Origin: Candidatus Methylomirabilota bacterium
GTDB lineage: Bacteria > Methylomirabilota > Methylomirabilia > Rokubacteriales > CSP1-6
Assembly: GCA_036001065.1 (NCBI GenBank)
Contig: DASYUQ010000115.1
Span: forward strand, 1,297 to 65,296
Reading direction: 5' to 3'
DNA length: 64,000 nucleotides
Shown here piece after piece: positions 2,290 through 53,232 of the stretch (positions within the stretch are counted from its first letter, which is position 1; the number at the start of each line of letters is the position of its first letter). The notes beneath the pieces are model-generated. The model was not told the DNA's origin and searched no databases. It saw only the letters and a list, made by a program, of their open reading frames with translations. A program made the position numbers and the translations under genes.

Positions 2290-3338
2290 CGGGCGCTCCC
2301 CTCCGGCACGGCCTCCCGGAGCTGCCCGCAGGCGGCGCCGATGTCCTCGCCCTTGCTCCAGCGGACCGTCGTCGTGATCCCGGCGTCGAGGAGCGTCGAC
2401 TGGAAGGCTAGGATCCTGGCCAGCGGCGGCCGCCGGAACGGCGCGCCCTCCCAGTCGTTGAACGGGATCAGGTTGACCTTCGCCCGCACGCCCCGGAGCA
2501 GTTGCGCGAGCCGTCGCGCGTCCTCGGGGGAATCGTTGACGCCCTCCAGCAGGACGTACTCGAAGAAGACGCGCTGGCGCGGCGCCAGCGGGTACCGGCG
2601 CACGGCCTCCATCAGCGCCGCCAGGTTCCAGGACTGGTTGACGGGCATCAGGCGCGATCGCACCTCGTCGGAAGCCGCGTGCAGCGAGATGGCCAGGTTC
2701 ACCCTGAGGTTCTCGCCGCCGAGACGGCGGATACCGGAGACCAGGCCCACCGTCGAGACCGTGATGCGCCGGGGAGAGTAGCCGACGCCGAGTCTGGCGT
2801 CGGTGAGGATCCGGATCGCCTTGACGAGCGCGGCGAGGTTGGCCAGCGGCTCGCCCATGCCCATGAAGACGAGGTGCGTGACGCGCCGGCCCTCCTCCAA
2901 CGCCAGCGCATTGGCGGCCAGGAGCTGGCCGACGATCTCCGCCGACGTCAGATTCCGCCCGAGCCCCATCGTGCCTGTCAGACAGAACGCGCACGCGTAG
3001 CCACAGCCGACCTGCGTGGAGAGGCACAGCGTGATGCGCTCGTCGTCGGGCATGAGCACTGCGCTCACCCGGCTGCCGTCGTCGAGCCGGAAGACCAGCT
3101 TGCGGCTTCCATCCTGCGACGGCGTCACGCGCTCGGTCTCGGGCAGCGCGACGACCGCCCGCTCGGCCAGCGCGGCGCGAAAGTCCTTGGGTAGGTCCGA
3201 CATCGCCCCCAGCGACAGGACGCCCTTGCGATAGATCCACGTGGCGAGCTGGCGGCCGCGGTAGCGTGAGCCGCCGAGCTCGACGGCGAGATCTTCCATC
3301 TCGGAGGGCAGCATTCCGATCAGATTCATGCGCGACAT
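2286..3338 (-). CDS. rlmN: 23S rRNA/tRNA adenine-C2 methyltransferase RlmN (radical SAM)
   Basis: Carries the CGYACAFCLTG radical SAM motif and a C-terminal conserved Cys (GAACGQL). The start was chosen at MSRMNLIG (ATG at 3338) inside the longer listed ORF. Confidence 0.8.
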   Translation of the reverse strand: MSRMNLIGMLPSEMEDLAVELGGSRYRGRQLATWIYRKGVLSLGAMSDLPKDFRAALAERAVVALPETERVTPSQDGSRKLVFRLDDGSRVSAVLMPDDERITLCLSTQVGCGYACAFCLTGTMGLGRNLTSAEIVGQLLAANALALEEGRRVTHLVFMGMGEPLANLAALVKAIRILTDARLGVGYSPRRITVSTVGLVSGIRRLGGENLRVNLAISLHAASDEVRSRLMPVNQSWNLAALMEAVRRYPLAPRQRVFFEYVLLEGVNDSPEDARRLAQLLRGVRAKVNLIPFNDWEGAPFRRPPLARILAFQSTLLDAGITTTVRWSKGEDIGAACGQLREAVPEGSAR

Positions 3339-3437
3339 CGCTCGAAGAATATCACGAAGCCCTCGGTGAGTTTTCCACCGCACTTGTGCGCGAGCGGTGG
3401 ATAACCCTGTGAGCGCGCCGAGGTCCGCCACAACTTT

Positions 3438-4772
3438 TCAGCCACTTGGAGCGCTTCGCTCATCCCGCGGGCACCCAGGCTGCAAGATGATGTACAGATC
3501 GAGCAAATTGGTGTTCGTGGGGCCGGTGATTACCAGATCTCCGCTGGCCCGGAGGAACGCGTAGGCATCGTTGTCCTTTAGTGACTCCCGCGGATCGTGG
3601 CCCGCGGCCTGACCGCGGGCCACCGTGCCGGCGTCCACCAGCGCGCCGGCCGCGTCGGTCGGCCCGTCGGTCCCATCGGTGCCCGCGGCGAGGGCGACCA
3701 GGCTCTCGTGGGGACGAAGCTCCTGGGCGGCGGTCAGGGCGAATTCCTGACAGCGCCCGCCGCGCCCGCGCCCCCGGACCGTCACGGTCGTTTCCCCGCC
3801 CGCGATCAGACAGGCCGGCGGCCGGAGCCGGCGGGCCCGGGCCAGGAGGTCGCGCGCCACCTCCCGCGCTTCACCCTCGAGCGCGCGAGTGAGGACGTGG
3901 GGATCGAAACCGAGCCGCCGCGCCTCGGCGGCCGCCGCGTCGACGGTCAGCGCGTTGTTACCGATCACGAGGTTCGTGACGCGCTCGAACAGCGGATCGC
4001 CCGGCTTCGGCGTCTCCTCCACCTCGCCGCGGGCGCCGGCCTCGAGCCGCGCCAGCACCGAGACCGGGGCCCGGTCGCGAACGCCGCGCCTGGTCAGCAC
4101 GCCCAGGGCGTCCGCGAAGGTCGTGGGGTCGGGAGCCGTCGGTCCCGACGCGATCACGTCGAGCGGGTCGCCGATGACGTCGGAGAGGATGAGCGTGAGC
4201 ACCATCGCCGGCGCCGCCGCCCGCGCCAGCTGCCCCCCCTTGAGAAGCGACAGATGCTTGCGGACCGCGTTCAGCTCGTTGATGGTCGCGCCGGCGGCGA
4301 GCAGGAGCCTGGTGACCGCCTGCTTCTCTTCCAGGGTCACGGGGGGCGCCGGCGCGGGGGTGAGCGCCGAGCCCCCACCCGAGATCAGAAACATGACGAG
4401 GTCGCCGGCGCCGGCGGTCCGGGCCAGCTCGAGGAGCCGCGCCGCGGCTACCTGGCCGCGACCGTCGGGCACCGGATGGCCGGCCTGCGCCAAACGGATG
4501 CGTCGGGTGGGCGCGGTGTGTCCGTCCTTGACGATGACGAATCCGTCGGCGATGCGGTCGCCCAGCACGCCCTCGACCGCCCGCGCCATCGCCCCGCTGG
4601 CTTTACCGCAGCCCAGCACGAGCAGGCGCCGGAGACGGCCGAGGTCGACGGCTCTCGGCCCGGCGACGAGCTTCGGGCCGTCCACGCGGAGGGCGCGACC
4701 GATGAGGGGCTCGGCGTCGCCGGCGGCCAGCGCGGCCTCGAAGATGGCGCGAGCCGCCTCGCGAGCGGTCAC
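3438..4772 (-). CDS. Glycerate 2-kinase (MOFRL family)
   Basis: Shows MOFRL-family similarity throughout (LVLGCGKASGAM..., ...LIAGGETTVTV..., GTDGTDGPTDAAGA). The start was placed at the GTG at 4770-4772, downstream of the REP-like repeat; the listed ORF extends through the repeat, which is unlikely to be coding. Confidence 0.65.
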   Translation of the reverse strand: MTAREAARAIFEAALAAGDAEPLIGRALRVDGPKLVAGPRAVDLGRLRRLLVLGCGKASGAMARAVEGVLGDRIADGFVIVKDGHTAPTRRIRLAQAGHPVPDGRGQVAAARLLELARTAGAGDLVMFLISGGGSALTPAPAPPVTLEEKQAVTRLLLAAGATINELNAVRKHLSLLKGGQLARAAAPAMVLTLILSDVIGDPLDVIASGPTAPDPTTFADALGVLTRRGVRDRAPVSVLARLEAGARGEVEETPKPGDPLFERVTNLVIGNNALTVDAAAAEARRLGFDPHVLTRALEGEAREVARDLLARARRLRPPACLIAGGETTVTVRGRGRGGRCQEFALTAAQELRPHESLVALAAGTDGTDGPTDAAGALVDAGTVARGQAAGHDPRESLKDNDAYAFLRASGDLVITGPTNTNLLDLYIILQPGCPRDERSAPSG

Positions 4773-4776
4773 ACGT

Positions 4777-4879
4777 CGGAGGGGGCGGACGTTACGGCCC
4801 CCTCGAGATCCATAGTCAGAGGGGGCCTCACGGCCCCCTCCGAACCACCCCGGTGGCGTTGCGCCGGCGAAGCCGGCGC
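4777..4879. repeat. REP/MITE-like composite hairpin repeat, copy a (orientation 1)
   Basis: GGAGGGGGCGGACGTTACGGCCCCCTC hairpin, a second GAGGGGGCC..GGCCCCCTCC hairpin, CGAACCACCCCGGTGG, and a GCGCCGGCGAAGCCGGCGC hairpin. It lies between the aminotransferase and glycerate kinase genes. Confidence 0.65.
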
Positions 4880-4950
4880 CCGAAGCAAGAACGCCTTGAT
4901 CCGATCGAACATCGGGAGCCTCGGCTGCGACGGTTCCGGTCCCGGCGCTC

Positions 4951-6129
4951 TCAGCGAGAGCGGAGCTTCTGCAGCCGCTCCCCCGCTTCCCGAAGCACAT
5001 CGTCGGTCTTCGGAAAGCAGAACCGGATCTTCGTCCGTCCCAGCTCGCGATGGGCGTGGAAGGACGAGCCGGGAACCGTGGCCACCCCCATCTCCTTGAT
5101 GAGGAACATAGCGAAGGTGGCGTCGTCCTCGATGCCGTACCGCTTCAGGAAATGCGCGACGTCGGTGAGGATGTAGTAGGCGCCGTCCGGTTTGTAGACC
5201 ACGAAGCCCGCGCGCTCGAGGTAGCCGAGCAGCAGGTCGCGCTTGGCCTGGTACATCTCGCGGAGCCAGACGTAATAGGCGTCGGGCAGCGCGAGCGCCG
5301 TCACGGCCGCCTCCTGAAACGGGTGCGGCGCCCCCACGGTCACGAAGTCGTGAGCGCGCCGGATGCCGAGGCTGATCTCCGGCGACGCGATGGCGTAGCC
5401 GATGCGCCAGCCCGTCACCGAGTAGGACTTCGAGATTCCCGAGATCGTGATCGTGCGCTCGGCCATGCCCGGCAGGGTGGCGATCGGCGTATGACCGAGC
5501 CCGTCGAAGACGATGTGCTCGTAGATCTCGTCGGTGATGGCCAGCAGGTCGTGCTGGAGGCAGAGATCGGCGATGAGGCCGAGCTCCCGGCGCGAGAAGA
5601 CCTTGCCGGTCGGGTTGTTGGGGCTGTTGAAGACGATGGCCTTCGTGCGCGGCGAGACCGCCCGGGCCAGCCGCTCGGGGTCGAAGCCGAACTCGGGAGG
5701 CTCCAGCGGAACGAAGACGGGCTGAGCACCGGAGATGATGCAGCCGGGGCCGTAGTTTTCGTAGAACGGCTCGAAGATGATCACCTCGTCGCCGGGGTTG
5801 AGCACCGCCAGCAGCGTCGACAGCATCGTCTCCGTCGAGCCGCAGCAGACGGTGATGTGGCGGTCGGGGTCCAGCTCCATCCCGTAAAACTTCCGGTACT
5901 TGTCGGCGATGCCCCGGCGCAGACGCGGCGTGCCCCAGGTGATGGCGTACTGGTGGAAGTCGCCGTCCAGCGCCTTGTGAGCGGCGTCGATCAGCTCTGG
6001 CGGCGGAGGGAAGTTGGGCATGCCCTGGGCCAGGTTGACGCCTCCGTGCTGGCTGACGACGCGCGTCATCTCACGGATCACCGACTCCGTGAAGCCTTGA
6101 ACCCGACGCGAGAGGCGAGATGTCGTCAC
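4951..6129 (-). CDS. PLP-dependent class I/II aminotransferase (methionine or kynurenine aminotransferase-like)
   Basis: Aminotransferase class I fold motifs: NLAQGMPNFPPP, FNSPNNPTGKVF, and a C-terminal SKSYSVTGWRIGY with the Schiff-base Lys. Confidence 0.8.
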   Translation of the reverse strand: MTTSRLSRRVQGFTESVIREMTRVVSQHGGVNLAQGMPNFPPPPELIDAAHKALDGDFHQYAITWGTPRLRRGIADKYRKFYGMELDPDRHITVCCGSTETMLSTLLAVLNPGDEVIIFEPFYENYGPGCIISGAQPVFVPLEPPEFGFDPERLARAVSPRTKAIVFNSPNNPTGKVFSRRELGLIADLCLQHDLLAITDEIYEHIVFDGLGHTPIATLPGMAERTITISGISKSYSVTGWRIGYAIASPEISLGIRRAHDFVTVGAPHPFQEAAVTALALPDAYYVWLREMYQAKRDLLLGYLERAGFVVYKPDGAYYILTDVAHFLKRYGIEDDATFAMFLIKEMGVATVPGSSFHAHRELGRTKIRFCFPKTDDVLREAGERLQKLRSR

Positions 6130-6354: not shown

Positions 6355-6597
6355 TCACGGAACGACGACGTCGCGCTCGATGGGATCGATCTGGACGCCG
6401 AGCTTCTTAAGCCAGGCCACACCCTGCTGAAGCCTCTCTTCGGGCGCGTCCATCTCCAGCGCCACCCAGCCGTAGTCCGCCTTCACGTCGGCGCGCCGGA
6501 TGTTGATCACGATGTCGAAGTCCTTCACGAGCCGGTAGAGGATGGGCTCCTGGATCAGGTGCGCCGGAAACGTGAGGCGGACACGCATGCGGGCCAT
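6355..6597 (-). CDS. NIL-domain (ferredoxin-like, MetN C-terminal-like) small protein
   Basis: 80 aa with a LIQEPILYRLVKDFDIVINIRRADVK..GWVALEM pattern resembling the NIL domain found in MetN and in sulfur-amino-acid accessory proteins. Confidence 0.5.
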   Translation of the reverse strand: MARMRVRLTFPAHLIQEPILYRLVKDFDIVINIRRADVKADYGWVALEMDAPEERLQQGVAWLKKLGVQIDPIERDVVVP

Positions 6598-6609
6598 GGC
6601 CGCACCGGG

Positions 6610-6887
6610 TCAGCGCCCTCCGGCAATGGCGGGCACGATCGAGACGGTATCGCCGTCCTTGAGGGCCGTCTTCTTGCCCTGGATGAACCGGATGTCTTCC
6701 TCGTTCACGTAGATGTTGATGAAGCGCCTCAGCTCTCCGCTGTCGTCCACCAGCCGTTCCCGTAGCCCGGGGAACTGGCGCTCCAGGTCGTCCACCACCT
6801 CCGCGACGGACTCCCCCTTGGCGCGGACCTCGGCGTTGCCCTTCGTGATGGAGCGGAGTGGAGTCGGGATACGCACCGTCACCGGCA

Positions 6888-6888
<1 letters not shown>
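6610..6888 (-). CDS. MoaD/ThiS/CysO-type sulfur-carrier protein (C-terminal GG followed by one extra Arg)
   Basis: 92-aa beta-grasp protein ending ...SIVPAIAGGR. It overlaps the stop of the upstream ThrC-like gene by 1 nt. Confidence 0.65.
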
Positions 6889-8147
<1,259 letters not shown>

Positions 8148-8265
8148 GAGCACGTCTCCATCGGTAGGGGAATTGAGCCCCGAGTTGTACTGCACCGACA
8201 GCAAGACATTTCGCTTAGTTAACAGTGAACAGCGGAGGAAGTCAATTGCAGTATGATCCGACCCC

Positions 8266-16349: not shown

Positions 16350-16970
16350 ATGACGGACCCCGTCCGCGCGATCACCTACTCCGACTATCTCTGACCGTGG
16401 TGCTACCCGGCGGCGGTCCGCCTCCAGCGCCTGGTCGAGGAGTTCGGCGGTCGATTCACGCTCGAGCACCGCGCGTTCCCGCTCCGTCCCGCGCCTGACC
16501 CCTCGGTCACCTTCCAGGGCACCTATCGGGAGGAGGCCTGGCGGCGCTGCGCGCAGATGTCGGCCGGCGACGGGATCGTCTTCAACGCTTGGCCACACGC
16601 GGGCCACTATCCCCACTGGAGCCTTCCCGCCCTGGAGGCCGCCAAGTGCATCGCCCGGCAAGGCCCGGAGGCCTTCGGGCGCATCCACCTGCGCCTCTAC
16701 GAGGCGTTCTTCACGCGGAGCCGGAACATCGCGGATCCCGGCGAGGTCGTGACGATCGTCGCCGAGGCCGGTATCGACACCGAGCGGTTCGTCGCCGATT
16801 ACCGCGCGGGCATCGGGCGCGACGAGGTGATCAAGGATTACCAGGCGGCGATGGAGGAGGGCGTCCGGGCGATTCCCGGCGTGATCTTCCCGGCGACCGG
16901 ACAGGCGCTGGTGGGCCTGGCCGACCTCGCACAGTATCGCGCCGCAGTCGAGGAAGCCGCGCGCTGCTGA
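16350..16970 (+). CDS. DsbA/FrnE-like thiol:disulfide oxidoreductase with in-frame UGA (putative selenocysteine) replacing the first Cys of the CxxC motif
   Basis: Translation from ATG 16350 reads MTDPVRAITYSDYL[TGA]PWCYPAAVRLQ... and continues in the same frame with no stop into the listed ORF 16557..16970. This matches the FrnE/DsbA SDYxCPWCY signature with TGA (16392-16394) at the Cys position. Confidence 0.7.
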
Positions 16971-21319: not shown

Positions 21320-21813
21320 AGGACGCCGGAGGGCGTCGATTGGCCGGCGGGCGTCGGCGCGCGGCGGAGAGCGCGCGCGGGCAGCCGCTCCACGCGGCTG
21401 CCGGCGATCAGGTCGTGCAGCGCCCGCTTGTCACGGCGCAGCCCCGCCATGACGAAGCCGAGCCCCAGCGGCAGCGAAGAGACGAAGTAGGCGAGGTACC
21501 GGAGAAACGCCCCACCCACCGGCAGCAACTCACCGTCGATGGCGACGACGCGGATGCCGACCGCCATCTTGCCCACCGTCTGCCCGCCGAGGGCGTGGAG
21601 CACGGTCGTGTAGAGGACGGTGAAGAGCCACGCGAACGCCACCGCGACGACCTGGACGGCGATGGCCTCTTCCGTCTGGCGTCCCCCCAGACGTCCGGCC
21701 ACGAAGCGGAGCGAGGCCAGCACGAGGAAGAACACGATGGAGTCGATCAGCAGCGCGACGACGCGGATCCAGAAGCCGGCCGGGCGGGGTTCGCTCCAAG
21801 CGCGCTCGTTCAC
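21316..21813 (-). CDS. RDD family membrane protein
   Basis: RDD-family features: W.R..A...D, hydrophobic helices, and TVGKM.VGIRVV. GTG start at 21811-21813. The upstream part of the listed 459-aa ORF is an artefact. Confidence 0.55.
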   Translation of the reverse strand: MNERAWSEPRPAGFWIRVVALLIDSIVFFLVLASLRFVAGRLGGRQTEEAIAVQVVAVAFAWLFTVLYTTVLHALGGQTVGKMAVGIRVVAIDGELLPVGGAFLRYLAYFVSSLPLGLGFVMAGLRRDKRALHDLIAGSRVERLPARALRRAPTPAGQSTPSGVL

Positions 21814-21831
21814 GGCGTGTATAATATCGCC

Positions 21832-23037
21832 ATGATTTCGGTGCGGGATGGTCAAAATCGCATCCTCGCACAGGTCACGCAGCGCACCTCGCCGGAGCTC
21901 GTTCCCCTCGCCGATGCGCGCGATCGTGTGCTCTGGGAAGCCGCCCGTGCGTCCTTCGACGTGCCGCCGACGGACAACTCCGCCGTCGATGGCTACGCGG
22001 TGTCGAGCGCCGACATCCCGGCTCGAGACAGCCGCGAGCTGATCGTGGTCGGCGATCTCCCCGCCGGTTCCGTCTTCGACGGCGTGATCCCGCCCGGGCA
22101 GGCCATCCGCATCATGACGGGCGCCCCGATGCCGGCGGGCCCGGACACGGTCTATCCCCAGGAGAGCGTCGAGCGCGTGGGCGATCGCATCCGCGTGCCG
22201 CCGATCGCCAGGGGCGCCAACGTCCGCCGGCGCGGCGAGGACGTGGCCAGCGGCACGGTCGTGATCGAGGCGGGCGCCGTCCTGCGTCCGCAAGAGCTGG
22301 GGCTCCTGGCCTCGCTCGGCCAGCGTCAGGTGCTGGTGAGTCAACCGCCGCGCGTCGCGCTGCTCTCCACCGGCGACGAGGTGGCCGAGCCCGGCGCAAT
22401 CCGCAAGCCCGGGCAGATCTATGACGCGAACCGCTTCACGCTGCGCGGGCTGAGCGAGCAGTGTGGCGGCGTGGTGACCGACCTCGGGATCGTGCCCGAC
22501 CAGCGCGATCGCCTCCGCGCGCGGCTGCTGGAGGCGGCGGAGGTCGCGGACCTCGTCATCACCTCCGGCGGCGTGTCCGTCGGCGCCTACGATCTCGTGA
22601 AGGAGGTGCTGGGCGAGGTCGGCGGCATCGACTTCTGGCAGGTGGCCATGCAGCCGGGACGGCCGCTGGCGGTGGGCCGCATCGGGCGCGCGCACTTCTT
22701 CGGCCTCCCCGGCAATCCCGTCGCCTCCATGCTCACCTTCCTGCTCTTCGTCCGGCCGGCGATCTTCACGCTGGCGGGGCGGCGGCGGGTCTTTCCCGAG
22801 ACCTGGCCGGCGCGCGCGGCGGAGCCGATGCGGAAGAAGGTGGGCCGCCGCGAATTCAAGCGCGGCATCCTCCGCCTCGACCAGGGGTGCTGGGAGGTGC
22901 GCACCACCGGGCCCCAGGGCTCGGGGATCCTGAGCTCGATGGTCGCCGGCAACTGCCTCATCGTCCTCGAGGAGGAGCGCGGCGACGTGGCGGCGGGTGA
23001 CACGGTCCTGATCGAGCCGTTCGGGTGGACGGATTGA
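21832..23037 (+). CDS. moeA: Molybdopterin molybdotransferase MoeA
   Basis: MoeA domain architecture with GGVS.G.D and PGNP motifs (LVITSGGVSVGAYD; GLPGNPVAS). Confidence 0.8.
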   Translation: MISVRDGQNRILAQVTQRTSPELVPLADARDRVLWEAARASFDVPPTDNSAVDGYAVSSADIPARDSRELIVVGDLPAGSVFDGVIPPGQAIRIMTGAPMPAGPDTVYPQESVERVGDRIRVPPIARGANVRRRGEDVASGTVVIEAGAVLRPQELGLLASLGQRQVLVSQPPRVALLSTGDEVAEPGAIRKPGQIYDANRFTLRGLSEQCGGVVTDLGIVPDQRDRLRARLLEAAEVADLVITSGGVSVGAYDLVKEVLGEVGGIDFWQVAMQPGRPLAVGRIGRAHFFGLPGNPVASMLTFLLFVRPAIFTLAGRRRVFPETWPARAAEPMRKKVGRREFKRGILRLDQGCWEVRTTGPQGSGILSSMVAGNCLIVLEEERGDVAAGDTVLIEPFGWTD

Positions 23038-24602
23038 TGGCCGGAGCGCTCACCGTCGAGCTGATCGACGCCCTCAAGGACACCGTCCGCGATCTCCTGC
23101 GCGACACCGCGCGCGCCTTGGCCCACCTCGCCTACGCCGATCTGAGAGTGGAAGTCACCGAGGTGAAGGCCGCCGCCGCCGAGAACGGCGCCAGCAAGTT
23201 CTCGGGCGACGACTACGTCTTCACGCTGGGCGTGCGTGTCCTGGCCGGCCACCGCACCATCGCGCCCGGCTACGTGGGCCTCACGCTCGGCGCCGCCGAC
23301 GTCCCCCACATCGAGCGCGTGATCCGCGAGGCGCTCGAGCGCGCGTACCGGCGGGCCAGCGTGAACGCCGAGATGAAGGCGGACGCGCGGGAGAAGTTCG
23401 GCGCCCTGGGCGCGGCGCTGGCCGACACGCGCCTGCACCCCATCGAGGTGCGCGAGGATACCGTCCCCGCCGTCTACGCGGTGGACCCGCGCTCCATGCG
23501 CCTGGCCGAGATGGTCGCCTACGCCACCGACGTCTCCCGCCAGGTCGCCGCCGTCGACCCCCGCCTCAAATACAACTCGATCTCGACGCTCACCCAGATG
23601 TCGCGCGAGCTCTTCGCCTCGACGGAAGGCGCGCTGATCGACCAGGCCTTCGCCCTGACCCAGGGGGCGTGCTCCATCGTGGCCGTCGCCGGGGTCACCA
23701 GCCAGGACCTCTACGACGTGCTCGGCCACCAGCGGGGCTGGGAAATTCTGTCAGAGGGCGTGGGCGAGTCGCTCATCCGTTTCCCGACGTTCCGCGACTT
23801 CGCCCTGGAGCTCGGCCGGGAGGGGGTGGCCCTGGCCGAGGCGCCGGTCCTGCCCACCGCTGACCGCGAGGTGGTCGTGGTCACGGACCCGCACTACAAC
23901 ACGCTGGTCGCCCACGAGATCGTCGGCCACCCCGTCGAGCTCGACCGCGCGCTCAAGATGGAGACCGCCTACGCCGGCCGCTCCTGGCTCCTGCGCGGTC
24001 TCGGCGAGCACCAGCTCGGCAAGCAGATCGCCTCTCCACTCGTCACCGCGTACTCGGACCCGTCCCTGCCCGGCTACGGCCATTACCGCTACGACCACGA
24101 AGGGGCCCCGGCGCGGCGGGTCGTCCACATCGACCGCGGGATCTTCACGGGCTTCATGAATAGCCGCCAGACCGCCGCGATCTTTGGCGGGGCGCCCAAC
24201 GGGCACTACAAGGCCACCGACGCCGCGTTGGTGCCGCTGATCCGGATGTCCAACACCGTCTTCGCCGGTGGCGACCGCGACCCACGCGACATCCTGAAGG
24301 AGGTCGACCATGGCTACTATGTGGCCGGCCATCGCATCCCGTCGATCGCCGAGAGCCGCGAGAACTTCCGGATCTCCGCGCGACGCGTCCACGAGATCCG
24401 GAACGGCGAGCTGGGCCGTCTCTACCGCGACGGCGGCATCGCCGCCGACAGCCGCGACTACCTGATGAACGTGGACGCCGTCGGCTCGGACTTCCTGCTG
24501 TACCCGATCCCCAACTGCGGCAAGGGCCAGCCCATGCAGACGAAGAAGCTCGGCAACGGGGGCCCCACGATGCGCAGTCGGGCCCGGGTGGTGGGGGGCT
24601 GA
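23025..24602 (+). CDS. TldD/PmbA-family metalloprotease, divergent TldD-like paralogue
   Basis: HExxxH-type motif HEIVGHPVE and the TldD/PmbA fold region. At 525 aa it is longer than the canonical TldD at 46352..47797. Confidence 0.65.
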   Translation: MDGLMAGALTVELIDALKDTVRDLLRDTARALAHLAYADLRVEVTEVKAAAAENGASKFSGDDYVFTLGVRVLAGHRTIAPGYVGLTLGAADVPHIERVIREALERAYRRASVNAEMKADAREKFGALGAALADTRLHPIEVREDTVPAVYAVDPRSMRLAEMVAYATDVSRQVAAVDPRLKYNSISTLTQMSRELFASTEGALIDQAFALTQGACSIVAVAGVTSQDLYDVLGHQRGWEILSEGVGESLIRFPTFRDFALELGREGVALAEAPVLPTADREVVVVTDPHYNTLVAHEIVGHPVELDRALKMETAYAGRSWLLRGLGEHQLGKQIASPLVTAYSDPSLPGYGHYRYDHEGAPARRVVHIDRGIFTGFMNSRQTAAIFGGAPNGHYKATDAALVPLIRMSNTVFAGGDRDPRDILKEVDHGYYVAGHRIPSIAESRENFRISARRVHEIRNGELGRLYRDGGIAADSRDYLMNVDAVGSDFLLYPIPNCGKGQPMQTKKLGNGGPTMRSRARVVGG

Positions 24603-24606
24603 AGCC

Positions 24607-25011
24607 GTGGGCCGGGCGCTGATCCCCCTGCTGGTGGCGGCACTGCTCCTGGGGGCCGCGGCGCCGGCGGCGCCGCCCGAGTATCCGGTCGCCTTCGTCA
24701 CGGTGGACGAGCTGCAGGGGGCGCTCGATCGCGGTCTGCCGGCGGACGTGATCGACGTGCGCGCGCGGGGCGAGTTCGACGAGCTGCACATCAAAGGCGC
24801 GCGCTCGATGCCGCTCCCCAGCGTCGCCGACAGGATCGGCGAGATCCCCCGGACGGGCCTCGTGGTCTTCTACTGAGCGTGCCCGCACGCGCTGTCCCGG
24901 GGGGCCAGCAACATCCTGTACGCGCGCGGGTGGCGCAACCATCGCGTGCTCGACGAGGGCCTGCCCGGCTGGATCGCGCACGGCTACCCGGTAGAGGGCG
25001 CGCGCCGATGA
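24607..25011 (+). CDS. Secreted single-domain rhodanese with in-frame UGA (putative selenocysteine) at the catalytic Cys position
   Basis: Signal peptide and rhodanese N-part end ...GLVVFY[TGA 24874-24876]. The same frame continues ACPHALSRGASNILYARGWRNHRVLDEGLPGWIAHGYPVEGARR, a typical rhodanese C-terminus, to TGA 25009-25011. ATGA overlap with the next gene. Confidence 0.65.
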
Positions 25012-26567
25012 TCGCGACCGCCGATCTCGCCAAGGCGGCGCGAGCGGCGCTGGAGTATGCGCAGGCCCAGCCCGGCGTGCGCGAGGTGGAAATCTTCGCC
25101 GCCGCCAATACGAGCCTGCTCACCCGGCTCTGCTACACCTCGCACATCGCCTCCAACGGCGTGGAGGAGCCGAAGTCCGCCCAGGCCCACGGCATCGGCA
25201 TCCAGGCGGTGTTCGATGGGCCCCAGGGTCCCCGGCTCGGCTTCGGCAGCGAGCCCAGCGACCTCACGCCGGGCGGCGCCGAGCGGGCGCTGGGCAAGGC
25301 GCGGGCCGCCGCCGTCCTCGATCCCGAGTTCGTCTCGCTACCGCGCCCGCGCCGCGAGCCGCGCGTCCTCTTCGATTATCACGACCCCAAGCTCATGGCC
25401 CTCGACGACGCGAGCCTGGTGGAGGCCGGCTGGAAGGTGGTCGGGGGCGCGCTCCGGACCTTCCTGGCGTCCTCCCGCCTGGCCGAGCTGGCGGGGAGCG
25501 ACGAGGGGCTCCGGGCCCTCGGCCTCATCCTCGGCGGCGACGTCACCGTTGTCCAGGAGCGCATCGCCATCGCCTCCACCCACCTGCCCCAGGTGCAGAC
25601 GGACGAATCGGCGCTGATCACCGCGTTCGTCACCGCGATGGTGGAGGCCCGCGATGCCAAGGGCTCGGGCTGGTCCACCGGCGTGCGCCTGGACCACTTC
25701 ACCGACGAGTCCGGCGTCGACGCCGCCCAGCGCGCCATCGAGGCCATCGGCGGCCGGCGGGTGCCGTCGGGCGAGTACACGGTCATCTTCGGCAAGCAGC
25801 CGGTGGCCGACCTGCTCAACAACCTCATCGTGCCGGCGTGCACGGCCAGCGCCTTCTACGCCTCCAGCACGCCCTTCCTGGCCAAGCTCGGCCGACGGGT
25901 GGCCTCCCCGCTCCTCACCATCTACGATCACGGTGCCATGCCCGGGCTCATGGGCTCCAAAGGCATCACCTGTGAGGGCCTGTCCACCGGGCGCACCGAT
26001 CTCATCAAGGACGGGATCCTCGTCGGGTGCCTCAGCAACTGGTACGAATCACAACGGCTGCTCCAAGATCCCGCGCTCGCTGGCAAGCTCGGTGCAACCG
26101 GAAAGGCCGCGGAGGCCGCGCTGGTGCCGCGCAACGGCTTCCGCTTCGAGGCCGGCGGTGGCCGCCAGTTCTACACTCAGCCGGGGATCGCCGCCTCGAA
26201 CGTGCTGGTGGAGGGAAGCTCGCCGGCGTCCCTGGACGAGCTGATCCGGACGGTGAGGGACGGGCTTTACATCGGTCGCATCTGGTACACGTATCCCATC
26301 AACGGGCTCCGGGCGGGCGATTTCACCTGCACGGTCGTCGGCGATTCGTATATCATCCGCGATGGCCGCCTGGCGGCGCCGCTCCGGCCCAACACGGTGC
26401 GGATCAACGACAACATCCTCAGAGTCCTGAACGCCGTCGTCGGCATCACCAAGGACGTGAAGGGCACCATCGTGTGGGCGGCCGACGAGGTCGTCTACGC
26501 CCCCGAGATCGCCGTCGCCGGCCTCCGGGTCGAAGAGATCGCCGGCTTCATGGAGGGGCTTTCCTGA
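25008..26567 (+). CDS. TldD/PmbA-family protein, PmbA/TldE-like paralogue
   Basis: PmbA/TldD family similarity throughout. The start was set at MIATADLAK (ATG 25008), overlapping the rhodanese stop. Confidence 0.65.
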   Translation: MIATADLAKAARAALEYAQAQPGVREVEIFAAANTSLLTRLCYTSHIASNGVEEPKSAQAHGIGIQAVFDGPQGPRLGFGSEPSDLTPGGAERALGKARAAAVLDPEFVSLPRPRREPRVLFDYHDPKLMALDDASLVEAGWKVVGGALRTFLASSRLAELAGSDEGLRALGLILGGDVTVVQERIAIASTHLPQVQTDESALITAFVTAMVEARDAKGSGWSTGVRLDHFTDESGVDAAQRAIEAIGGRRVPSGEYTVIFGKQPVADLLNNLIVPACTASAFYASSTPFLAKLGRRVASPLLTIYDHGAMPGLMGSKGITCEGLSTGRTDLIKDGILVGCLSNWYESQRLLQDPALAGKLGATGKAAEAALVPRNGFRFEAGGGRQFYTQPGIAASNVLVEGSSPASLDELIRTVRDGLYIGRIWYTYPINGLRAGDFTCTVVGDSYIIRDGRLAAPLRPNTVRINDNILRVLNAVVGITKDVKGTIVWAADEVVYAPEIAVAGLRVEEIAGFMEGLS

Positions 26568-27484
26568 TGACAGACGTGGCTCGTCTCGAAGCGATCGCCC
26601 GCGAATGCCGCGTGCAGATCATCCGGATGCTGGCCCACGCGGGCTCGGGGCATCCGGGCGGCTCGCTCTCGGTCATCGACCTCGTGGTGACGCTCATGTT
26701 CGGCCGCATGCGGCACGATCCCCAGCGCCCCCACTGGCCCGAGCGGGACCGGCTGATCCTGTCCAAGGGTCACGCGGTCCCCGCCCTCTACGCGGCGATG
26801 GCCCGCGCCGGGTATTTCGCCGACGACCGGCTGATCACGCTCCGCAAGCTGGGCAGCCCGCTGCAGGGGCACCCCGACCGTACCGTGCTGCCCGGCATCG
26901 AGGCCGCCACGGGCTCGCTGGGCCAGGGGCTCTCGATCTCGCTGGGGATCGCGCTCGGCCTCAAGATGGCCGGCTCGCCGGCGCGCGTGTACTGCATCCT
27001 CGGCGACGGCGAGATCCAGGAGGGTCAGGTCTGGGAAGCGGCGATGTCCGGCCCCCAGCTGGGCCAGCCCCGGCATCCCCTCGACAATCTCACCGTGATC
27101 CTGGACTACAACAAGATCCAGCTGGACGACTTCGTCGCCAAGATCCGCGACCTCGAGCCCGTGCTGGCCAAGTGGCAGGCGTTCGGCTGGCCGGTGGTCG
27201 AGATCGACGGCCACCAGATCGATCAGATCGACAAGGCCCTCGATCAGGCCGAAACCACCCGCGGCAAGCCCTCTTTCATCGTGGCCCACACCGTCAAGGG
27301 CAAGGCCGTGTCGTTCATGGAAAACCAGCCCGAGTGGCACGGCAAGGCGCCCAAGCCGGCCGAGGCGATCGCGGCCGTCCGCGAGATCCTGGGCGTCACC
27401 GAGGCCGCCTGGGAGGAGTATCTGGCCAAGGATTCCACCGCCCGCGCGCTCGTCAGCGAGCTGCGCGCGCTCGAGAGAAAGTAA
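26567..27484 (+). CDS. Transketolase, N-terminal (TPP-binding) subunit of a split transketolase
   Basis: GHPGGSLS, the GDGE TPP-binding motif (ILGDGEIQEG), and about 300 aa in size. The start ATG overlaps the upstream stop (TGATG). Confidence 0.8.
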   Translation: MTDVARLEAIARECRVQIIRMLAHAGSGHPGGSLSVIDLVVTLMFGRMRHDPQRPHWPERDRLILSKGHAVPALYAAMARAGYFADDRLITLRKLGSPLQGHPDRTVLPGIEAATGSLGQGLSISLGIALGLKMAGSPARVYCILGDGEIQEGQVWEAAMSGPQLGQPRHPLDNLTVILDYNKIQLDDFVAKIRDLEPVLAKWQAFGWPVVEIDGHQIDQIDKALDQAETTRGKPSFIVAHTVKGKAVSFMENQPEWHGKAPKPAEAIAAVREILGVTEAAWEEYLAKDSTARALVSELRALERK

Positions 27485-27494
27485 GGAGACCTGG

Positions 27495-28421
27495 ATGCCT
27501 GGGAAAGCCACCCGCGCGGCGTTCGGCGAGGCGCTCCTCGAGCTAGGAGCGCGCGACGAGCGGATCGTCACCCTCGACGCCGATCTCTCGAAGTCCACGA
27601 TGACCGTGGCCTTCGCCAAGAAGCATCCCGACCGCGCCTTCAACCTAGGCATCGCCGAGCAGAACATGATCGGCATCGGGGCCGGCCTGGCGCTGGCCGG
27701 GAAGATTCCCTTCGTGTGCTCGTTCGCCTGCTTCCTGGTGGGCCGGTTCGAGACGGTCCGGATGTCCGTCGCCTACACCAACGCCAACGTGAAGCTCGTC
27801 GGCACCCACGCCGGGATCGCCATCGGCGAGGACGGCTACAGCCAGATGGGGCTCGAGGACGTGGCCTGCATCCGGTCCCTGCCGAACATCGCGATCGTCC
27901 AGCCCGCGGACGAGCTGGAGACCAAGCAGGCCGTGGCTTACGCCGTCGAGCACGAGGGCCCGGTCTACCTGCGGCTCACGCGCCAGAACATGGAGCCGGT
28001 CTGTCCGCCCGACTATCGCTTCCGGCTGGGCCAGTGGCTCCTGCTGCGCGCGGGCCACGACGTCACCCTCATCGGCTCGGGCGGGCCGATCGGGAACTGC
28101 CTGGAGGCCGCCAAGCTGCTGGCCGCCGAGGGAATCTCGGCGGAGGTCATCGACGCGGCGTCGATCAAGCCGCTCGACGAGGATCTGTTGTTACGCTCGG
28201 CCGGCCGCACCGGCCACGTCGTCACCGTCGAGGACCACGCGCTGGCGGGCGGTCTGGGCGGCGCCGTCGCCGAACTGCTCGGCGAGGTCATGCCCACGCC
28301 GTTGAAGCGGCTGGGGGTGCAGGGCTTCGGCGAGTCCGGCGATCCCCAGGGGCTCTACGCCAAGCACGGCCTCGATCCGGCCGGCATAGCCGCCAGCGTG
28401 AGGAAGTTCCTCAACCGCTGA
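27495..28421 (+). CDS. Transketolase, C-terminal (pyrimidine-binding / C-domain) subunit
   Basis: LGIAEQNMIGIGAGLA motif, typical of the split transketolase B subunit. Confidence 0.8.
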   Translation: MPGKATRAAFGEALLELGARDERIVTLDADLSKSTMTVAFAKKHPDRAFNLGIAEQNMIGIGAGLALAGKIPFVCSFACFLVGRFETVRMSVAYTNANVKLVGTHAGIAIGEDGYSQMGLEDVACIRSLPNIAIVQPADELETKQAVAYAVEHEGPVYLRLTRQNMEPVCPPDYRFRLGQWLLLRAGHDVTLIGSGGPIGNCLEAAKLLAAEGISAEVIDAASIKPLDEDLLLRSAGRTGHVVTVEDHALAGGLGGAVAELLGEVMPTPLKRLGVQGFGESGDPQGLYAKHGLDPAGIAASVRKFLNR

Positions 28422-31594: not shown

Positions 31595-32437
31595 GTGACG
31601 GACAAGCGGATCACCCTCGGGGAAGTGCCGCGCTACGTGCAGAGCGGCATGCGGCTGGGCATCGGCGGCGGGCCGGTCATGATCACGCCCACCGCGCTGA
31701 TCCGCGAGGTGGTCCGCAGCGGCGTCCGTGACCTGAATCTGGTGGCCGCCTCCACCGGCGGCTTCGGCCTCGACCTCCTGATCGGCGCCGGGTGCGCGGC
31801 GTCGGTGGAGTTCGCGCAGATCGTCTTCAACGAGTTCGGCCCGGCGCCGAACTTCCGCCGCTACGCGGAGAGCGGCCGCCTTCGCTGTCTCGACCACACC
31901 TGACCCGGGCTCCTGGCCGGGCTCCAGGCGGGAGCCCAGGGTGTTCCCTTCATGGTCGTGCCGGGGCACGTGGGCTCGGACTACCAGCGTCTCCGGCCCG
32001 AGTTCAGGGTGATCCCGAACCCCTACGACCCCGCCCAGCGCGTGATGATCGTCCCCGCCATCCGGTGCGACGCCGCGCTCATCCACGCCCTGGCGGCGAC
32101 GCCCGACGGCACCCTGCTGGTCGACCACATGGAGGACGACGCGCTGCTCGCCCAGGCCTCGCGGGTGGTGATCGCGTCGGCGGAGCGGATCGTGACGCGG
32201 GACGAGCTCGGTCGGGCCGGCGAGGGCGTAGTGCTGGAAGGCATCCACGTCACTGCCGTCGTCGAGCTGCCCCGGGGCGCGCACCCCACGTTCGTCCGGG
32301 GGCTCTACGCCGTCGATGCCGCGCATCTCGGCGAGTACGCCGTCGCCGCCCGGGACGACGAGGCCTTCCGGGACTACCTCGCCCGCTACGTGCATGGCCC
32401 CAAGGACCACGCCGCCTACCTCGCCCTGCTGACGTGA
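31595..32437 (+). CDS. Family I CoA-transferase subunit A (3-oxoacid/glutaconate CoA-transferase alpha-like) containing an in-frame TGA at 31901-31903
   Basis: The N-part ORF 31595..31903 and the ORF 31952..32437 are in the same frame. Read-through gives ...CLDHT[TGA]PGLLAGLQAGAQGVPF, which aligns to the conserved PQGTLAERIRAGGAGIPAF region of AtoD/PcaI/ScoA. The gene is intact only if the TGA is decoded, or the TGA is a sequencing error. Confidence 0.55.
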
Positions 32438-32460
32438 CGCCCTGCACGTCGGAGGAGCGG

Positions 32461-33162
32461 ATGGCGACCGTCATCGCCCGCGAGGTGCGCGACGGCGAGA
32501 CGGTGGCGGTGGGGACGCTGGCGCCGGTGCCCGCCAGCGGCGTGCTGCTCGCTCACTTCACACACGCGCCCCGGGCGCGGGTCGTCATCCTCAACCACCC
32601 CGACTACTGGCCCTTCCGCCAGGGCTCCAAGGAGTTCTACGACTTCGCGCAGCGCGGCGGCTTCGACCTCTTCTTCCTCTCGGGCGGCCAGATCGATCGC
32701 CACGGCAACCTGAACCTGATCGCGGTCGGCGACGTCGAGCGGCCGCGCGTCAGGCTCCCGGGCGGCGCCGGCTCGGCGATGCTCTACTACCTGCCCCGGC
32801 GAGTCATCGTCTTCCGCACCGAGCACTCCCCGCGGATCTTCGTCGAGCGCGTGGACCACGTGGCCAGCCCGGGCTCGAGCCCGCCCGAGGTCGCGCGGCC
32901 GGGCGGCCCCTGGAAGGTCGTCACCCCTCTGTGCGTGTTCCGCTTCGATAAGGAGCGGAAGGCACTGGTGGTGGAGTCCGTCCACCCGGGCGTGACGCGG
33001 GAGGAGCTGGCGCGGCGCACGGGCTTCGCGCTCGACTACGCCGGGAGGGTGGGGGTCATCCCCGAGCCCACGCCGGGCGAGCTCCACCTGCTCCGCACCC
33101 GCGTCCGCGAAGCCGTCGCCAAGACCTACCCGCAGTTCGCCGAGACCGCGTTCGCCCGTTGA
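32461..33162 (+). CDS. Family I CoA-transferase subunit B
   Basis: Follows subunit A immediately and carries the conserved SGG (LFFLSGGQID) motif of CoA-transferase beta subunits. An alternative GTG start at 32434 would overlap the subunit A stop. Confidence 0.65.
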   Translation: MATVIAREVRDGETVAVGTLAPVPASGVLLAHFTHAPRARVVILNHPDYWPFRQGSKEFYDFAQRGGFDLFFLSGGQIDRHGNLNLIAVGDVERPRVRLPGGAGSAMLYYLPRRVIVFRTEHSPRIFVERVDHVASPGSSPPEVARPGGPWKVVTPLCVFRFDKERKALVVESVHPGVTREELARRTGFALDYAGRVGVIPEPTPGELHLLRTRVREAVAKTYPQFAETAFAR

Positions 33163-45008: not shown

Positions 45009-46355
45009 TTAGTTCCCGGCGACCACCATGCGGGCGATCTTGAGCGTGGGCGAGGCGGTGCGGTCGCGGAGCACGAGGTCGTTGCCCACCCCGTCGACCG
45101 CGTCGAACATCTCCAGGAGATTCCCGGCGACGGTGACCTCCTCGACCGGATAGGCGAGCCGGCCGTTCTCGATCCAGTGGCCCACGGCGCCCCGCGAGTA
45201 GTCGCCGGTGACGCCGTTGACGCCGAAGCCGATCAGCTCCGTGACGTAGAAGCCTTCCGTCACCGACGCGATCAGCTCCGCGGGCGGCGTCGTTCCCGGG
45301 CGCAGCGTGAGGTTGGTCGTCCCCACGGTGACGCCGCTGCCGTCCCGCACGGCGTGGTGCGTGGAGGCCAGGCCGAGCTTGCGGGCGCCGTAGGTGTCGA
45401 GCAGATACGACTCCAGCACGCCCTCCCGGACGACGACCGTCCGCCGCACCGGCAGCCCCTCGCCGTCGAACGGCCGCGAGCCCAGCGCGCCTGCGATCAG
45501 TCCGTCGTCGACGATCGTCACCGACGGAGCGGCGATGCGCGAGCCCAGCCGGTCGCAGAGGAACGAGGCGCGCCGGTAGAGACTCGGCCCGCTGGCGGCC
45601 GAGGCCAGCGCCCGGACGAGGCTGGCGGCCGTCTCGGGATCGAAGATGACGGGGACCTCCACGGTCTTCACCTTGCGGGCCCCCAGCCGCTGGAGCGCGC
45701 GCGCCGCCGCCATCCGGCCCACCGCCGCGGGATCCTCCAGCCCCGCCCGCTGGCGGGCCATCGAGTACCAGGTGTCGCGCTGCATCTCTCCGTTCCGGGC
45801 GGCGACCGGCGAGACGGTGATGCCGAAGCTCGAGGTCGCGTAGGCGCGCGCGAACCCGGACGAGGTCGCGTACGCGTACCGCGCCTGGCGATCCCAGTGC
45901 TCCGCGCCTTCGGAGTTGGTGATCCGCGGATCGGCGGCCAGCGCCGCCGCCTCGGCCCGGCGCGCGATCTCGATCTTCTCCTCGGGCGTGAGGTCGTGCC
46001 CCGAGGCATCGCGCAGACCCAGGTCGGGCACGCGATCGATCAGCTCGGCGGGATCGGGAAGGCCGGCGTGCGGATCCTCGGCGGTGATGCGGGCCAGGCG
46101 CGTCGCCTCGTCCACCACCCGCCCGAGCGACTCCGGCGACAGGTCGGAGGTCGACGCGGCGGCAGAGGCCGTGCCGGCGAAGACGCGCAGGGACAGCCGC
46201 TGCTCGTGCGAGTGCGTCACCGTGTCCACCTCGCCCAGCCGAACGGTGGCGCTGAAGCGGCGCTCCTCCACGAGGAAGGCGTCGGCGGCGGTGGCGCCCC
46301 GCGCGGTGGCGCGCTTGAGCACCGAGACGAGCAGGTCGCTGCTGAGCTGGCTCAC
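45009..46355 (-). CDS. pmbA: Metalloprotease PmbA/TldE
   Basis: PmbA family similarity. It forms an overlapping pair with the upstream tldD. Confidence 0.75.
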   Translation of the reverse strand: MSQLSSDLLVSVLKRATARGATAADAFLVEERRFSATVRLGEVDTVTHSHEQRLSLRVFAGTASAAASTSDLSPESLGRVVDEATRLARITAEDPHAGLPDPAELIDRVPDLGLRDASGHDLTPEEKIEIARRAEAAALAADPRITNSEGAEHWDRQARYAYATSSGFARAYATSSFGITVSPVAARNGEMQRDTWYSMARQRAGLEDPAAVGRMAAARALQRLGARKVKTVEVPVIFDPETAASLVRALASAASGPSLYRRASFLCDRLGSRIAAPSVTIVDDGLIAGALGSRPFDGEGLPVRRTVVVREGVLESYLLDTYGARKLGLASTHHAVRDGSGVTVGTTNLTLRPGTTPPAELIASVTEGFYVTELIGFGVNGVTGDYSRGAVGHWIENGRLAYPVEEVTVAGNLLEMFDAVDGVGNDLVLRDRTASPTLKIARMVVAGN

Positions 46356-52851: not shown

Positions 52852-52895
52852 CCAAAAACCAAACGGCCGCTCCCAGGCTGGGCGCGGCCGTCTCC
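52852..52895 (-). terminator. Putative riboswitch expression-platform intrinsic terminator in the thiS leader
   Basis: On the minus strand, CGGCCGC[GCCCAGCCUGGGA]GCGGCCG is followed by UUUGGUUUUUGGG, between the TPP aptamer and the thiS start. Confidence 0.5.
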
Positions 52896-52900
52896 GTCGG

Positions 52901-52985
52901 CCGTGTTCCCTTCGCTGGTATTACCCAGAATCAGGTTCGAGGGGTCCCGGGCCGCACCCGGTTCTCAGGAATCCTCCCCCCACGG
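52901..52985 (-). ncRNA. TPP (thiamine pyrophosphate) riboswitch, THI element
   Basis: Minus-strand sequence GGGGGAGGAUUCCUGAGAACCGGGUGCGGCCCGGGACCCCUCGAACCUGAUUCUGGGUAAUACCAGCGAAGGGAA contains the conserved CUGAGA, ACCC, GAACCUGAU and CUGG-UAAUACCAGCGAAGGGAA blocks of the THI-box. Confidence 0.9.
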
Positions 52986-53232
52986 CGACGGTCGAAGTAT
53001 ACCACTGCGTTCGCTGTGTGGCGACGAGGGCTCGATTGCAACATCCCGATGGGTACGCCGGGGTCGGCGCCAGCATTGTCTCCCCTCTCCTCGTCGGGGA
53101 AACCCGCGACCGCCTGACGTGTTTACCGGCAATCAGTTCGCGCGCGACACGCACCCGGATACGGATAAGGCTCGAGACGGGTAATCCCGGCGGAGGCTCG
53201 CTCGCATCCGTCGATCTCGGGCGGCTAGACCG

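Follow-up and report, generated by a model that had tools for sequence, protein, structure and literature searches.

A candidate selenoprotein rhodanese with a U-x-C motif in a Methylomirabilota (Rokubacteriales) contig

Rhodanese-type selenoproteins, which carry selenocysteine (Sec, U) at position i or i+2 of the active-site motif and are decoded through a bacterial selenocysteine insertion sequence (bSECIS), are well known. A 2026 catalogue lists five such forms, with the motifs UxxS, UxxG, CxU, UxxG and UxxxxU (PMC13188914), and a separate study found a UxU form in Olavius symbionts. The consensus bSECIS model of Zhang and Gladyshev (2005), which the catalogue restates, describes a hairpin with a loop of 3-9 nucleotides (nt) in which the first base is G and the second G or U, a stem of 4-16 bp, a distance of 16-37 nt from the UGA and a minimum free energy (MFE) of -7.5 kcal/mol or lower (PMC13188914). 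The subject of this report is a rhodanese gene with an in-frame UGA codon, located at positions 24607-25011 of a stretch of 64,000 nt from contig DASYUQ010000115.1 of assembly GCA_036001065.1 (Candidatus Methylomirabilota bacterium, Rokubacteriales). This whole stretch is referred to as the window, and all coordinates are those of the window. The motif of the gene, U-x-C-P, is found neither among the five catalogued forms nor in UxU. It is highly probable that SelB and Sec-tRNASec, guided by a hairpin at 24891-24909, insert Sec at codon 90, and that the product is a rhodanese, probably exported, with a catalytic Sec and a Cys two residues further on (+2).

Read from the GTG at 24607, the frame runs from VGRALIPLLVAALLLGAAAPAAPPEYPV to ...GLVVFY, meets the TGA at 24874-24876, continues for 44 codons (ACPHALSRGASNILYARGWRNHRVLDEGLPGWIAHGYPVEGARR) and stops at a second TGA. 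With the first TGA written as Cys, the Pfam profile Rhodanese (PF00581) matches residues 32-124 with positions 1-101 of its 102 (47.5 bits, cutoff 22.2); as this is a single match, one domain runs over the TGA. The TGA is aligned with the catalytic Cys of 3tp9 (vYCrtGgRS) and 1yt8 (nCAGRTRS). The G+C content of third codon positions (GC3) in the rhodanese frame is 0.93 on either side of the TGA, and 0.48-0.80 in the remaining two frames. At its end the gene shares the sequence ATGA with the start of a PmbA-like gene. This overlap is common to the loci L001/L002 and to an orthologue with Cys, L004, implying translational coupling with ribosomes that reach position 25011. The original prediction had read a rhodanese C-terminus with an ATGA overlap behind the TGA, had seen high GC3 on both sides and had placed the TGA at the active-site Cys and the gene between TldD-like and PmbA-like genes; all of this was borne out, the position of the gene by domain matches of its neighbours (23025-24602 and 25008-26567). 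Its term 'CX5 loop' was loose as a label, the loop being U-A-C-P-H-A-L-S-R, a U-x-C-P variant.

The frame of the PmbA-like gene is also open from 24603 (24603-26567, forward strand), across the whole rhodanese gene, and the program that listed open reading frames (ORFs) proposed GTG 24879 as its start (ORF 24879-26567). This later start was ruled out by codon-position GC and synteny. GC3 in the PmbA-like frame is 0.56 versus 0.93 in the rhodanese frame, and the real start of the PmbA-like gene is ATG 25008. The open frame across the rhodanese gene is an artefact of high GC content, which could mislead gene callers.

A protein search over 5.8 billion proteins gave 379 relatives of the rhodanese, the lengths of which were judged on the best 120. 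About 113 of these 120 were called at 84-92 residues, mostly at exactly 89, and end with ...VV[FL]Y, which shows that they were cut at the same codon. The relatives are mainly metagenomic, and those with a name belong to Candidatus Rokubacteria/Rokuibacteriota (Methylomirabilota in GTDB). Orthologous DNA was taken from named metagenome-assembled genomes (MAGs) and from metagenomes; loci and proteins are given here with the prefixes L and P. Among the loci of the TGA form are L002 (Ga0073934_10000039, a JGI contig of 384 kb), L009 (CAWBMV010000037.1) and L010 (QHSP01000030.1). TGA occupies the codon in 26 distinct orthologous DNA sequences from Rokubacteria/Methylomirabilota, including two distant orthologues with a different downstream peptide (L035 and L036). 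TGC (Cys) stands at this position in a single orthologue, for which there are two records (L004, assembly GCA_975902685.1; L005, a Logan run), and its protein, P0003, was called as a single gene of 138 residues.

The peptide that follows the TGA is strongly conserved ([ATSD]-C-P-H-A-L-[SA]-R-G-A-S-N-I-L-Y...L-D-E-G-L-P-G-W...G-Y-P-V), all orthologues share the motif U-[ATSD]-C-P, and the frame closes at the PmbA-like start or next to it. Pairwise Nei-Gojobori comparison of 24 orthologues gave a ratio of nonsynonymous to synonymous differences per site (pN/pS) of 0.30 for codons +1 to +40, at a pS of 0.40; upstream of the TGA pN/pS is 0.59. The part behind the TGA therefore evolves as protein, and under tighter constraint than the upstream part. 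In L001-L003, the TGA-bearing loci with listed gene calls, no separate gene was called in the gap of about 145 nt. The original prediction had considered a sequencing artefact unlikely, and the conservation of the TGA excludes one. Its question whether homologues have Cys or TGA at the site was answered by the 26 TGA sequences, the one TGC and an all-Cys family described below. Its own objection, that the two parts of the protein could be encoded separately, is at odds with the empty gap, the low pN/pS and the undivided gene of the Cys orthologue.

Two further records carry another change. L043, a contig of 836 nt that codes for P0002, has AGA (Arg) at the Sec codon (L043:546-548), one base away from TGA. 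Its hairpin is intact and compensated (CUCGCCC-GGG-GGGCGAG), as in L034, and the AGA probably reflects a misread base (T to A) or else a mutation of very recent date. L009, from the long-read MAG MFD02242.bin.2.34, has an in-frame TAG 16 codons after the UGA (L009:10307-10309; ILY*LGW). The closest relative fetched, L010, has ACG (Thr) at this site and the other orthologues have varied sense codons; the TAG is probably an assembly or sequencing error.

The hairpin, which is part of the coding region, extends from 17 to 35 nt past the U of the UGA. Its loop of 3 nt, its stem of 7-8 bp, its spacing of 22 nt from the UGA to the start of the apical loop and its MFE of -8.3 kcal/mol all lie within the four limits of the bSECIS model, and in orthologues the MFE goes down to -15.5 kcal/mol. 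Across orthologues the element has the form G-CUG[U/G]CCC, loop G[G/U]G, GGGCCAG-C. The six codons that make it up (L-S/A-R-G-A-S) are fixed, with GGG in 22 of 22 sequences, AGC in 23 of 23, TCC in 12 of 12 and GCC in 22 of 23; the Arg codon is CGG or CGT and never CGC. These fixed codons are minority choices in the codon usage of the window (GGG 0.26, AGC 0.26, TCC 0.26, CGG plus CGT 0.40), from which the joint expectation of the observed choices is 1.9e-3. Synonymous change is suppressed accordingly, with a pS of 0.13 in the hairpin codons versus 0.38-0.46 in the flanks.

The stem also covaries. In L034, and likewise in L043, CUC...GCG takes the place of CUG...GCC, which turns a G-C pair into C-G by two synonymous changes, and in L016 a C-to-U change leaves a U-G wobble in the stem. 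L035 and L036 code for the peptide LASLAY, yet form a hairpin (GGCCA-GUU-UGGCC) in which the spacing between UGA and loop is unchanged and one stem pair has gone from C-G to A-U. In an alignment of 26 sequences, 87.5% of the cells pair, as compared with 24-60% in controls that shift the 3' arm by 1-3 columns. Two stem pairs show double-sided changes, the observed covariation score was reached by none of 500 shuffles, and RNAalifold independently predicted the same stem. In the Cys orthologue the hairpin has decayed (-5.2 kcal/mol, with Arg replaced by Val in the loop). A strict scan of the window for a hairpin together with coding sequence recovered the rhodanese only. The search for a bSECIS behind the TGA, suggested in the original prediction, has returned a hairpin that fits the model, covaries and shows suppressed synonymous change.

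Several results speak against Sec insertion, or against leaning heavily on the hairpin. Folded singly for MFE, 24868-24940 does not outscore shuffled sequences (z = 0.01); the signal of the hairpin emerges only in comparative analysis. No SECIS-type family of Rfam matched at gathering or permissive thresholds; a snoRNA match of 8 bits was dismissed as meaningless. In the window, which has a G+C content of 71%, hairpins of similar geometry are found behind 3.8% of all TGA trinucleotides and behind 2 of 45 true terminators; taken by itself, the hairpin is therefore weak evidence. A U-C mismatch interrupts the stem in the sequence of the window itself, and few independent events contribute to the covariation. 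ARAGORN detected no tRNA, and hence no tRNA-Sec, in the window or in 16 of the loci. A tblastn search with approximate E. coli queries found no SelA, SelB or SelD in the window or in about 465 kb of related loci, and no Pfam domain of the Sec machinery occurs among the 58 annotated genes of the window. The lack of sel genes in the window and the related loci is uninformative for genomes of several Mb. In the AlphaFold2 model of the Cys orthologue the active-site loop has a low predicted local distance difference test score (pLDDT) of about 57, too low to establish the geometry of U-x-C. Finally, sequence alone cannot separate the insertion of Sec from that of Cys.

In the proposed mechanism, the hairpin, with its G-G/U-G apical loop, would recruit SelB-GTP-Sec-tRNASec to the ribosome; Sec would be inserted at the UGA in place of termination, and translation would go on to the stop at 25009-25011. 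The Sec would then sit where the catalytic Cys heads the active-site loop of rhodaneses. The invariant Cys of U-x-C-P-H would most likely act as its partner, either by forming or resolving a selenenylsulfide or by taking over the transferred sulfane sulfur. The protein would most likely function as an extracytoplasmic sulfurtransferase or as a thiol-selenol redox protein.

The same SelB/SECIS route might insert Cys by means of tRNA-ReC, a selC*-type tRNACys, and the product would then be an ordinary Cys rhodanese with an unusual encoding. Such tRNAs have been described and were detected in about 13-17% of the genomes surveyed (PMC13582414), and the conserved UGA, the hairpin and the Cys homologues fit them equally well. 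This explanation is nevertheless considered unlikely. tRNA-ReC is a minority feature that occurs alongside canonical tRNASec in the genomes described in detail (PMC13582414), and the phylum is reported to be rich in selenoproteins. The UGA has been held in at least 26 orthologues with TGC only one mutation away and used once, which is easier to understand if the product is not Cys. From this we infer that Sec rather than Cys is inserted. Support for Sec machinery in this lineage comes from literature at the level of the phylum only. A Methylomirabilota MAG with 63 predicted selenoprotein genes is mentioned in PMC13188914, which cites Deng et al. 2026 for it. Sec-containing group 4 [NiFeSe] hydrogenases have been reported in Methylomirabilota (PMC13582414), and of the Sec-type genomes pooled from nine phyla about 90% have selABCD, one missing gene being allowed (PMC13582414).

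True termination at 24876 is very unlikely. Translation would then yield a product of 89 residues, or nothing functional, and the downstream 132 nt would be an RNA element, a leader of the PmbA-like gene or the remainder of a pseudogene. Public pipelines do call the 89-residue ORF, and the PmbA-like frame is open from 24603. However, the active-site loop and the final beta-alpha units of the domain would be missing from a product of 89 residues; the downstream codons show the pN/pS of protein with abundant synonymous change outside the hairpin, their GC3 is that of the rhodanese frame and not that of the PmbA-like frame, the Cys orthologue is continuous, and a pseudogene is not expected to persist in at least 26 lineages with conserved synteny. 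Scarcely credible is a sequencing or assembly error, or a genome-wide reassignment of TGA to sense: a lone TGA in one assembly could be an error, and the AGA of P0002/L043 and the TAG of L009 show that errors occur, but the same TGA is present in independent assemblies from many samples and technologies, TGA terminates 47 of the 66 genes called in the window, so that the code is not reassigned, and the only TGAs that interrupt domains in the window are those at conserved-Cys columns.

The reading as a Sec-containing rhodanese also agrees with the protein family. The AlphaFold2 model of P0003 (pLDDT 75.5, a moderate value) consists of a detached helix of residues 2-15 followed by a rhodanese alpha/beta domain. 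All 50 Foldseek matches listed from the Protein Data Bank (PDB) are rhodanese domains, with a best E-value of 2e-7; they include YgaP, Sud (a periplasmic polysulfide-sulfur transferase) and rhodanese modules from persulfide dioxygenase and from coenzyme A disulfide reductase (CoADR) fusions. An exhaustive search with the Cys orthologue led to a broad family of single-domain rhodaneses with a nearly invariant Y-C-x-C-P, in which the +2 Cys is close to invariant as well. The L035/L036 type has an all-Cys counterpart in P0268. The protein of the window accordingly represents the Sec form of the family, with the first Cys replaced, and pairs of Sec and Cys forms exist in two subclades. The N-terminal segment (Table 1) is conserved in the orthologues, and members of the Y-C-x-C-P family have signal or lipobox-like N-termini; from these features the rhodanese is predicted to be exported, in line with the original prediction, which had called it secreted. 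A twin-arginine signal was considered and rejected: RR is present in some orthologues (MRRTL...), not in the protein of the window or in others. A signal or anchor of the general secretory type appears more likely on the basis of the N-terminal residues.

Two other genes of the window have a TGA at a conserved Cys position (Table 1). The first, a DsbA/FrnE-like gene, reads MTDPVRAITYSDYL-TGA-PWCY (YSDYL-U-PWCY), that is, U-P-W-C in place of C-P-W-C, 14 codons past the ATG. The TGA and a CCGGCGGCG-GUC-CGCCUCCGG hairpin are kept in L001/L002, L011, L014, L017 and L031, and public calls of the gene begin after the TGA (174 residues in L001). DsbA-like UxxC proteins are a known selenoprotein type (PMC13188914). 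This TGA failed the hairpin rule of the strict scan outright. The original prediction had cited it as a companion case; it is real, and the TGA at 31901-31903 is now added to it.

The added gene resembles subunit A of CoA-transferases and reads ...RCLDHT-TGA-PGLLAGLQAG; a subunit-B-like gene follows at 32434-33162. About 100 close homologues are called as the fragment after the TGA only. Full-length distant homologues have a conserved Cys at the site (D-x-T-C-P-A), and four orthologues that were fetched retain the TGA followed by a GGGCUCC-AGGCN-GGAGCC hairpin. The TGA passed the hairpin rule and is missing from the output of the combined scan, presumably owing to the coding-flank filter. No CoA-transferase is contained in the 2026 selenoprotein catalogue (PMC13188914) or was found in the searchable literature, and the gene may represent a selenoprotein family that has not been described before, within a class of non-redox enzymes. 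The three genes agree in that their apical loops contain G-G or G-U and start 21-22 nt downstream of the UGA, and such a common spacing and loop would be expected if one SelB reads them. The two additional UGA genes support a genome-wide Sec trait. Other TGAs were examined and rejected: an apparent in-frame TGA pair at 2286-5144 (reverse strand) belongs to two separate genes, glycerate-kinase-like and RlmN, which share a frame by chance, and at 31559 and 6610 the TGA simply ends a gene.

The rhodanese is part of a gene cluster (Table 1). The order MoeA, TldD-like, rhodanese, PmbA-like, transketolase N-terminal subunit, transketolase C-terminal subunit is kept in every locus of the main group that reaches far enough. 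The flanking TldD-like and PmbA-like proteins, of about 520 residues each, match the third domain of the family at about 125 bits. A second, canonical TldD/PmbA pair is located at 45012-47797 on the reverse strand; it has all three Pfam domains and scores of about 240 bits. The match to the third domain only, as compared with the canonical pair, places the rhodanese within a divergent, paralogous TldD/PmbA pair. The rhodanese may be functionally linked to this pair and to MoeA.

In the distant locus L035 (L035:26-1100, forward strand), from a lineage with about 57% GC, the UGA rhodanese lies directly downstream of a VKOR-family gene and outside the TldD/PmbA cluster, so that the link to TldD/PmbA is specific to a lineage. 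The VKOR-family match is marginal (27.7 bits, cutoff 27.5). Proteins of the VKOR family are DsbB-like periplasmic thiol oxidases. The adjacency suggests that the two may be partners in periplasmic thiol/selenol redox chemistry, and it is plausible that the rhodanese has a thiol/selenol redox role outside the cytoplasm.

Elsewhere in the window, a thiamine pyrophosphate (TPP) riboswitch (RF00059, 56.7 bits) was detected at 52889-52990 on the reverse strand, upstream of thiS-thiG-thiE (52838 down to 51243), and this cluster is followed by a gene for a DAO-family FAD oxidoreductase (ThiO-like). At 6355-8204, also on the reverse strand, a PALP enzyme (438 residues), a ThiS/MoaD-like carrier and a NIL-domain protein form a tight cluster. 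The carrier (6610-6888) ends with ...AIAGGR, one residue beyond GG, and its TGA at 6610-6612 is an ordinary stop. The cluster resembles a protein-thiocarboxylate sulfur-carrier system of the CysO/CysM type.

Table 1. Positions of the rhodanese gene, its elements, its neighbours and the other candidate genes in the window.
Feature	Position	Strand	Remark
MoeA (molybdopterin molybdenumtransferase), first gene of the cluster	21340..23037	+	End overlaps the start of the TldD-like gene
Divergent TldD-like gene	23025..24602	+	PmbA_TldD_3rd is the only domain detected; 4 nt from the rhodanese gene
Single-domain rhodanese, proposed complete selenoprotein gene	24607..25011	+	134 codons; GTG start; proposed Sec is codon 90; true stop TGA 25009-25011
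N-terminal hydrophobic, signal-peptide-like segment VGRALIPLLVAALLLGAAAPA	24607..24669	+	Possible A-P-A|A cleavage site, then invariant AAPPEYPV
In-frame UGA at the catalytic-Cys position, proposed Sec codon	24874..24876	+	26 distinct TGA orthologues; TGC in L004
Invariant Cys at +2 (U-x-C motif), candidate resolving or partner residue	24880..24882	+	Cys in 23/23 sequences
bSECIS-like hairpin G-CUGUCCC / GGG / GGGCCAG-C	24891..24909	+	Apical loop 24899-24901
ATGA, overlap of the true rhodanese stop with the PmbA-like start	25008..25011	+	Start ATG at 25008
Divergent PmbA-like gene	25008..26567	+	Third domain only; shares ATGA with the rhodanese gene
Split transketolase, N- and C-terminal subunit genes	26612..28421	+	Conserved downstream members of the cluster
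DsbA/FrnE-like candidate selenoprotein	16350..16970	+	UGA 16392-16394 (U-P-W-C); hairpin at about 16407-16427, loop GUC
CoA-transferase subunit-A-like candidate selenoprotein (PF01144-type)	31595..32437	+	UGA 31901-31903 (D-H-T-U-P); hairpin 31919-31937, loop AGGCG

In public data (JGI, ENA, NCBI) the rhodanese is annotated as a 'hypothetical protein' or 'rhodanese-related sulfurtransferase' of 89 residues, and the CoA-transferase-like gene is given in two fragments. Well over a hundred protein clusters are mis-annotated in this way (P0001 and P0004-P0120 for the rhodanese; P0121 and P0123-P0206 for the CoA-transferase-like protein). Recognition as a selenoprotein would correct the annotation of what looks like an inactive fragment. 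The U-x-C form in Rokubacteria appears to be new, with no NCBIfam model that covers it and a motif outside the catalogue (PMC13188914).

Rokubacteria and Methylomirabilota are abundant in soils and groundwater, and to our knowledge there is no cultured representative of the Rokubacteria. The wider interpretation of the locus is an evenly balanced possibility: that U-x-C is an uncatalogued sixth form of rhodanese selenoprotein, the mirror of C-x-U and the Sec version of the widespread extracytoplasmic Y-C-x-C-P family, fixed in Rokubacteria in a conserved cluster, and that the window samples a large, mis-annotated selenoproteome which includes the CoA-transferase-like protein with T-U-P. If true, U-x-C would complete the set of C-x-U, U-x-U and U-x-C and would point to a two-chalcogen redox mechanism in the loop. 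It would also lend support to the recent proposal that the selenoproteome of this phylum ranks among the largest in bacteria, and would bear on the selenium demand of microbial communities in soil. The understanding of Sec decoding itself would be unchanged.

Compared with known systems, the hairpin is like the bSECIS elements of E. coli fdhF and fdnG, and like the consensus model, in that a stem-loop within the ORF follows closely on the 3' side of the UGA. It differs from the E. coli elements in having no sequence similarity to them, and it is a predicted element with an apical triloop. PspE and YgaP of E. coli and Sud of Wolinella (1qxn) likewise consist of a signal or anchor segment followed by one rhodanese domain (about 100 residues). 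PspE and YgaP are weak sequence matches, and Sud and YgaP are structural neighbours of the model. These proteins differ in that their loop, of the type C-x4-[ST/R], contains one catalytic Cys, with no +2 Cys, Sec or SECIS, and their identity to the protein described here is about 20-25%.

The rhodanese selenoproteins of Zhang and Gladyshev (forms 1, 2 and 4; UxU) likewise have Sec in place of the catalytic Cys and a bSECIS in the coding region. Forms 1, 2 and 4 are UxxS/UxxG, whereas the protein described here has U-x-C-P-H and occurs in Rokubacteria/Methylomirabilota; the distinction is drawn by catalogued motif and not by exemplar sequences. The TsoB rhodanese/DsbD fusion (NF045694, form 5) scores 18.9 bits against a cutoff of 805, and is a UxxxxU fusion of about 570 residues, in contrast to a single domain of 134.

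The closest described system is rhodanese_LYCAU (NF041203, form 3, C-x-U), the best curated match for the protein of the window and for every Y-C-x-C-P member tested. It is also a small single-domain rhodanese (about 126 residues) with a chalcogen pair at i and i+2, and it exists in Sec and Cys versions. The scores are 43.8 bits for the protein of the window, 50.1 for P0003 and 45-61 for nine other members of the family; as the cutoff is 115, none of the proteins tested is a member of NF041203. The difference lies in the position of Sec, which is at i+2 in NF041203 (C-A-U, with the Cys at the canonical position) and would be at i in the rhodanese described here (Y-U-A-C). That Sec is accepted at both i and i+2 argues that the two residues act as a redox or transfer pair.

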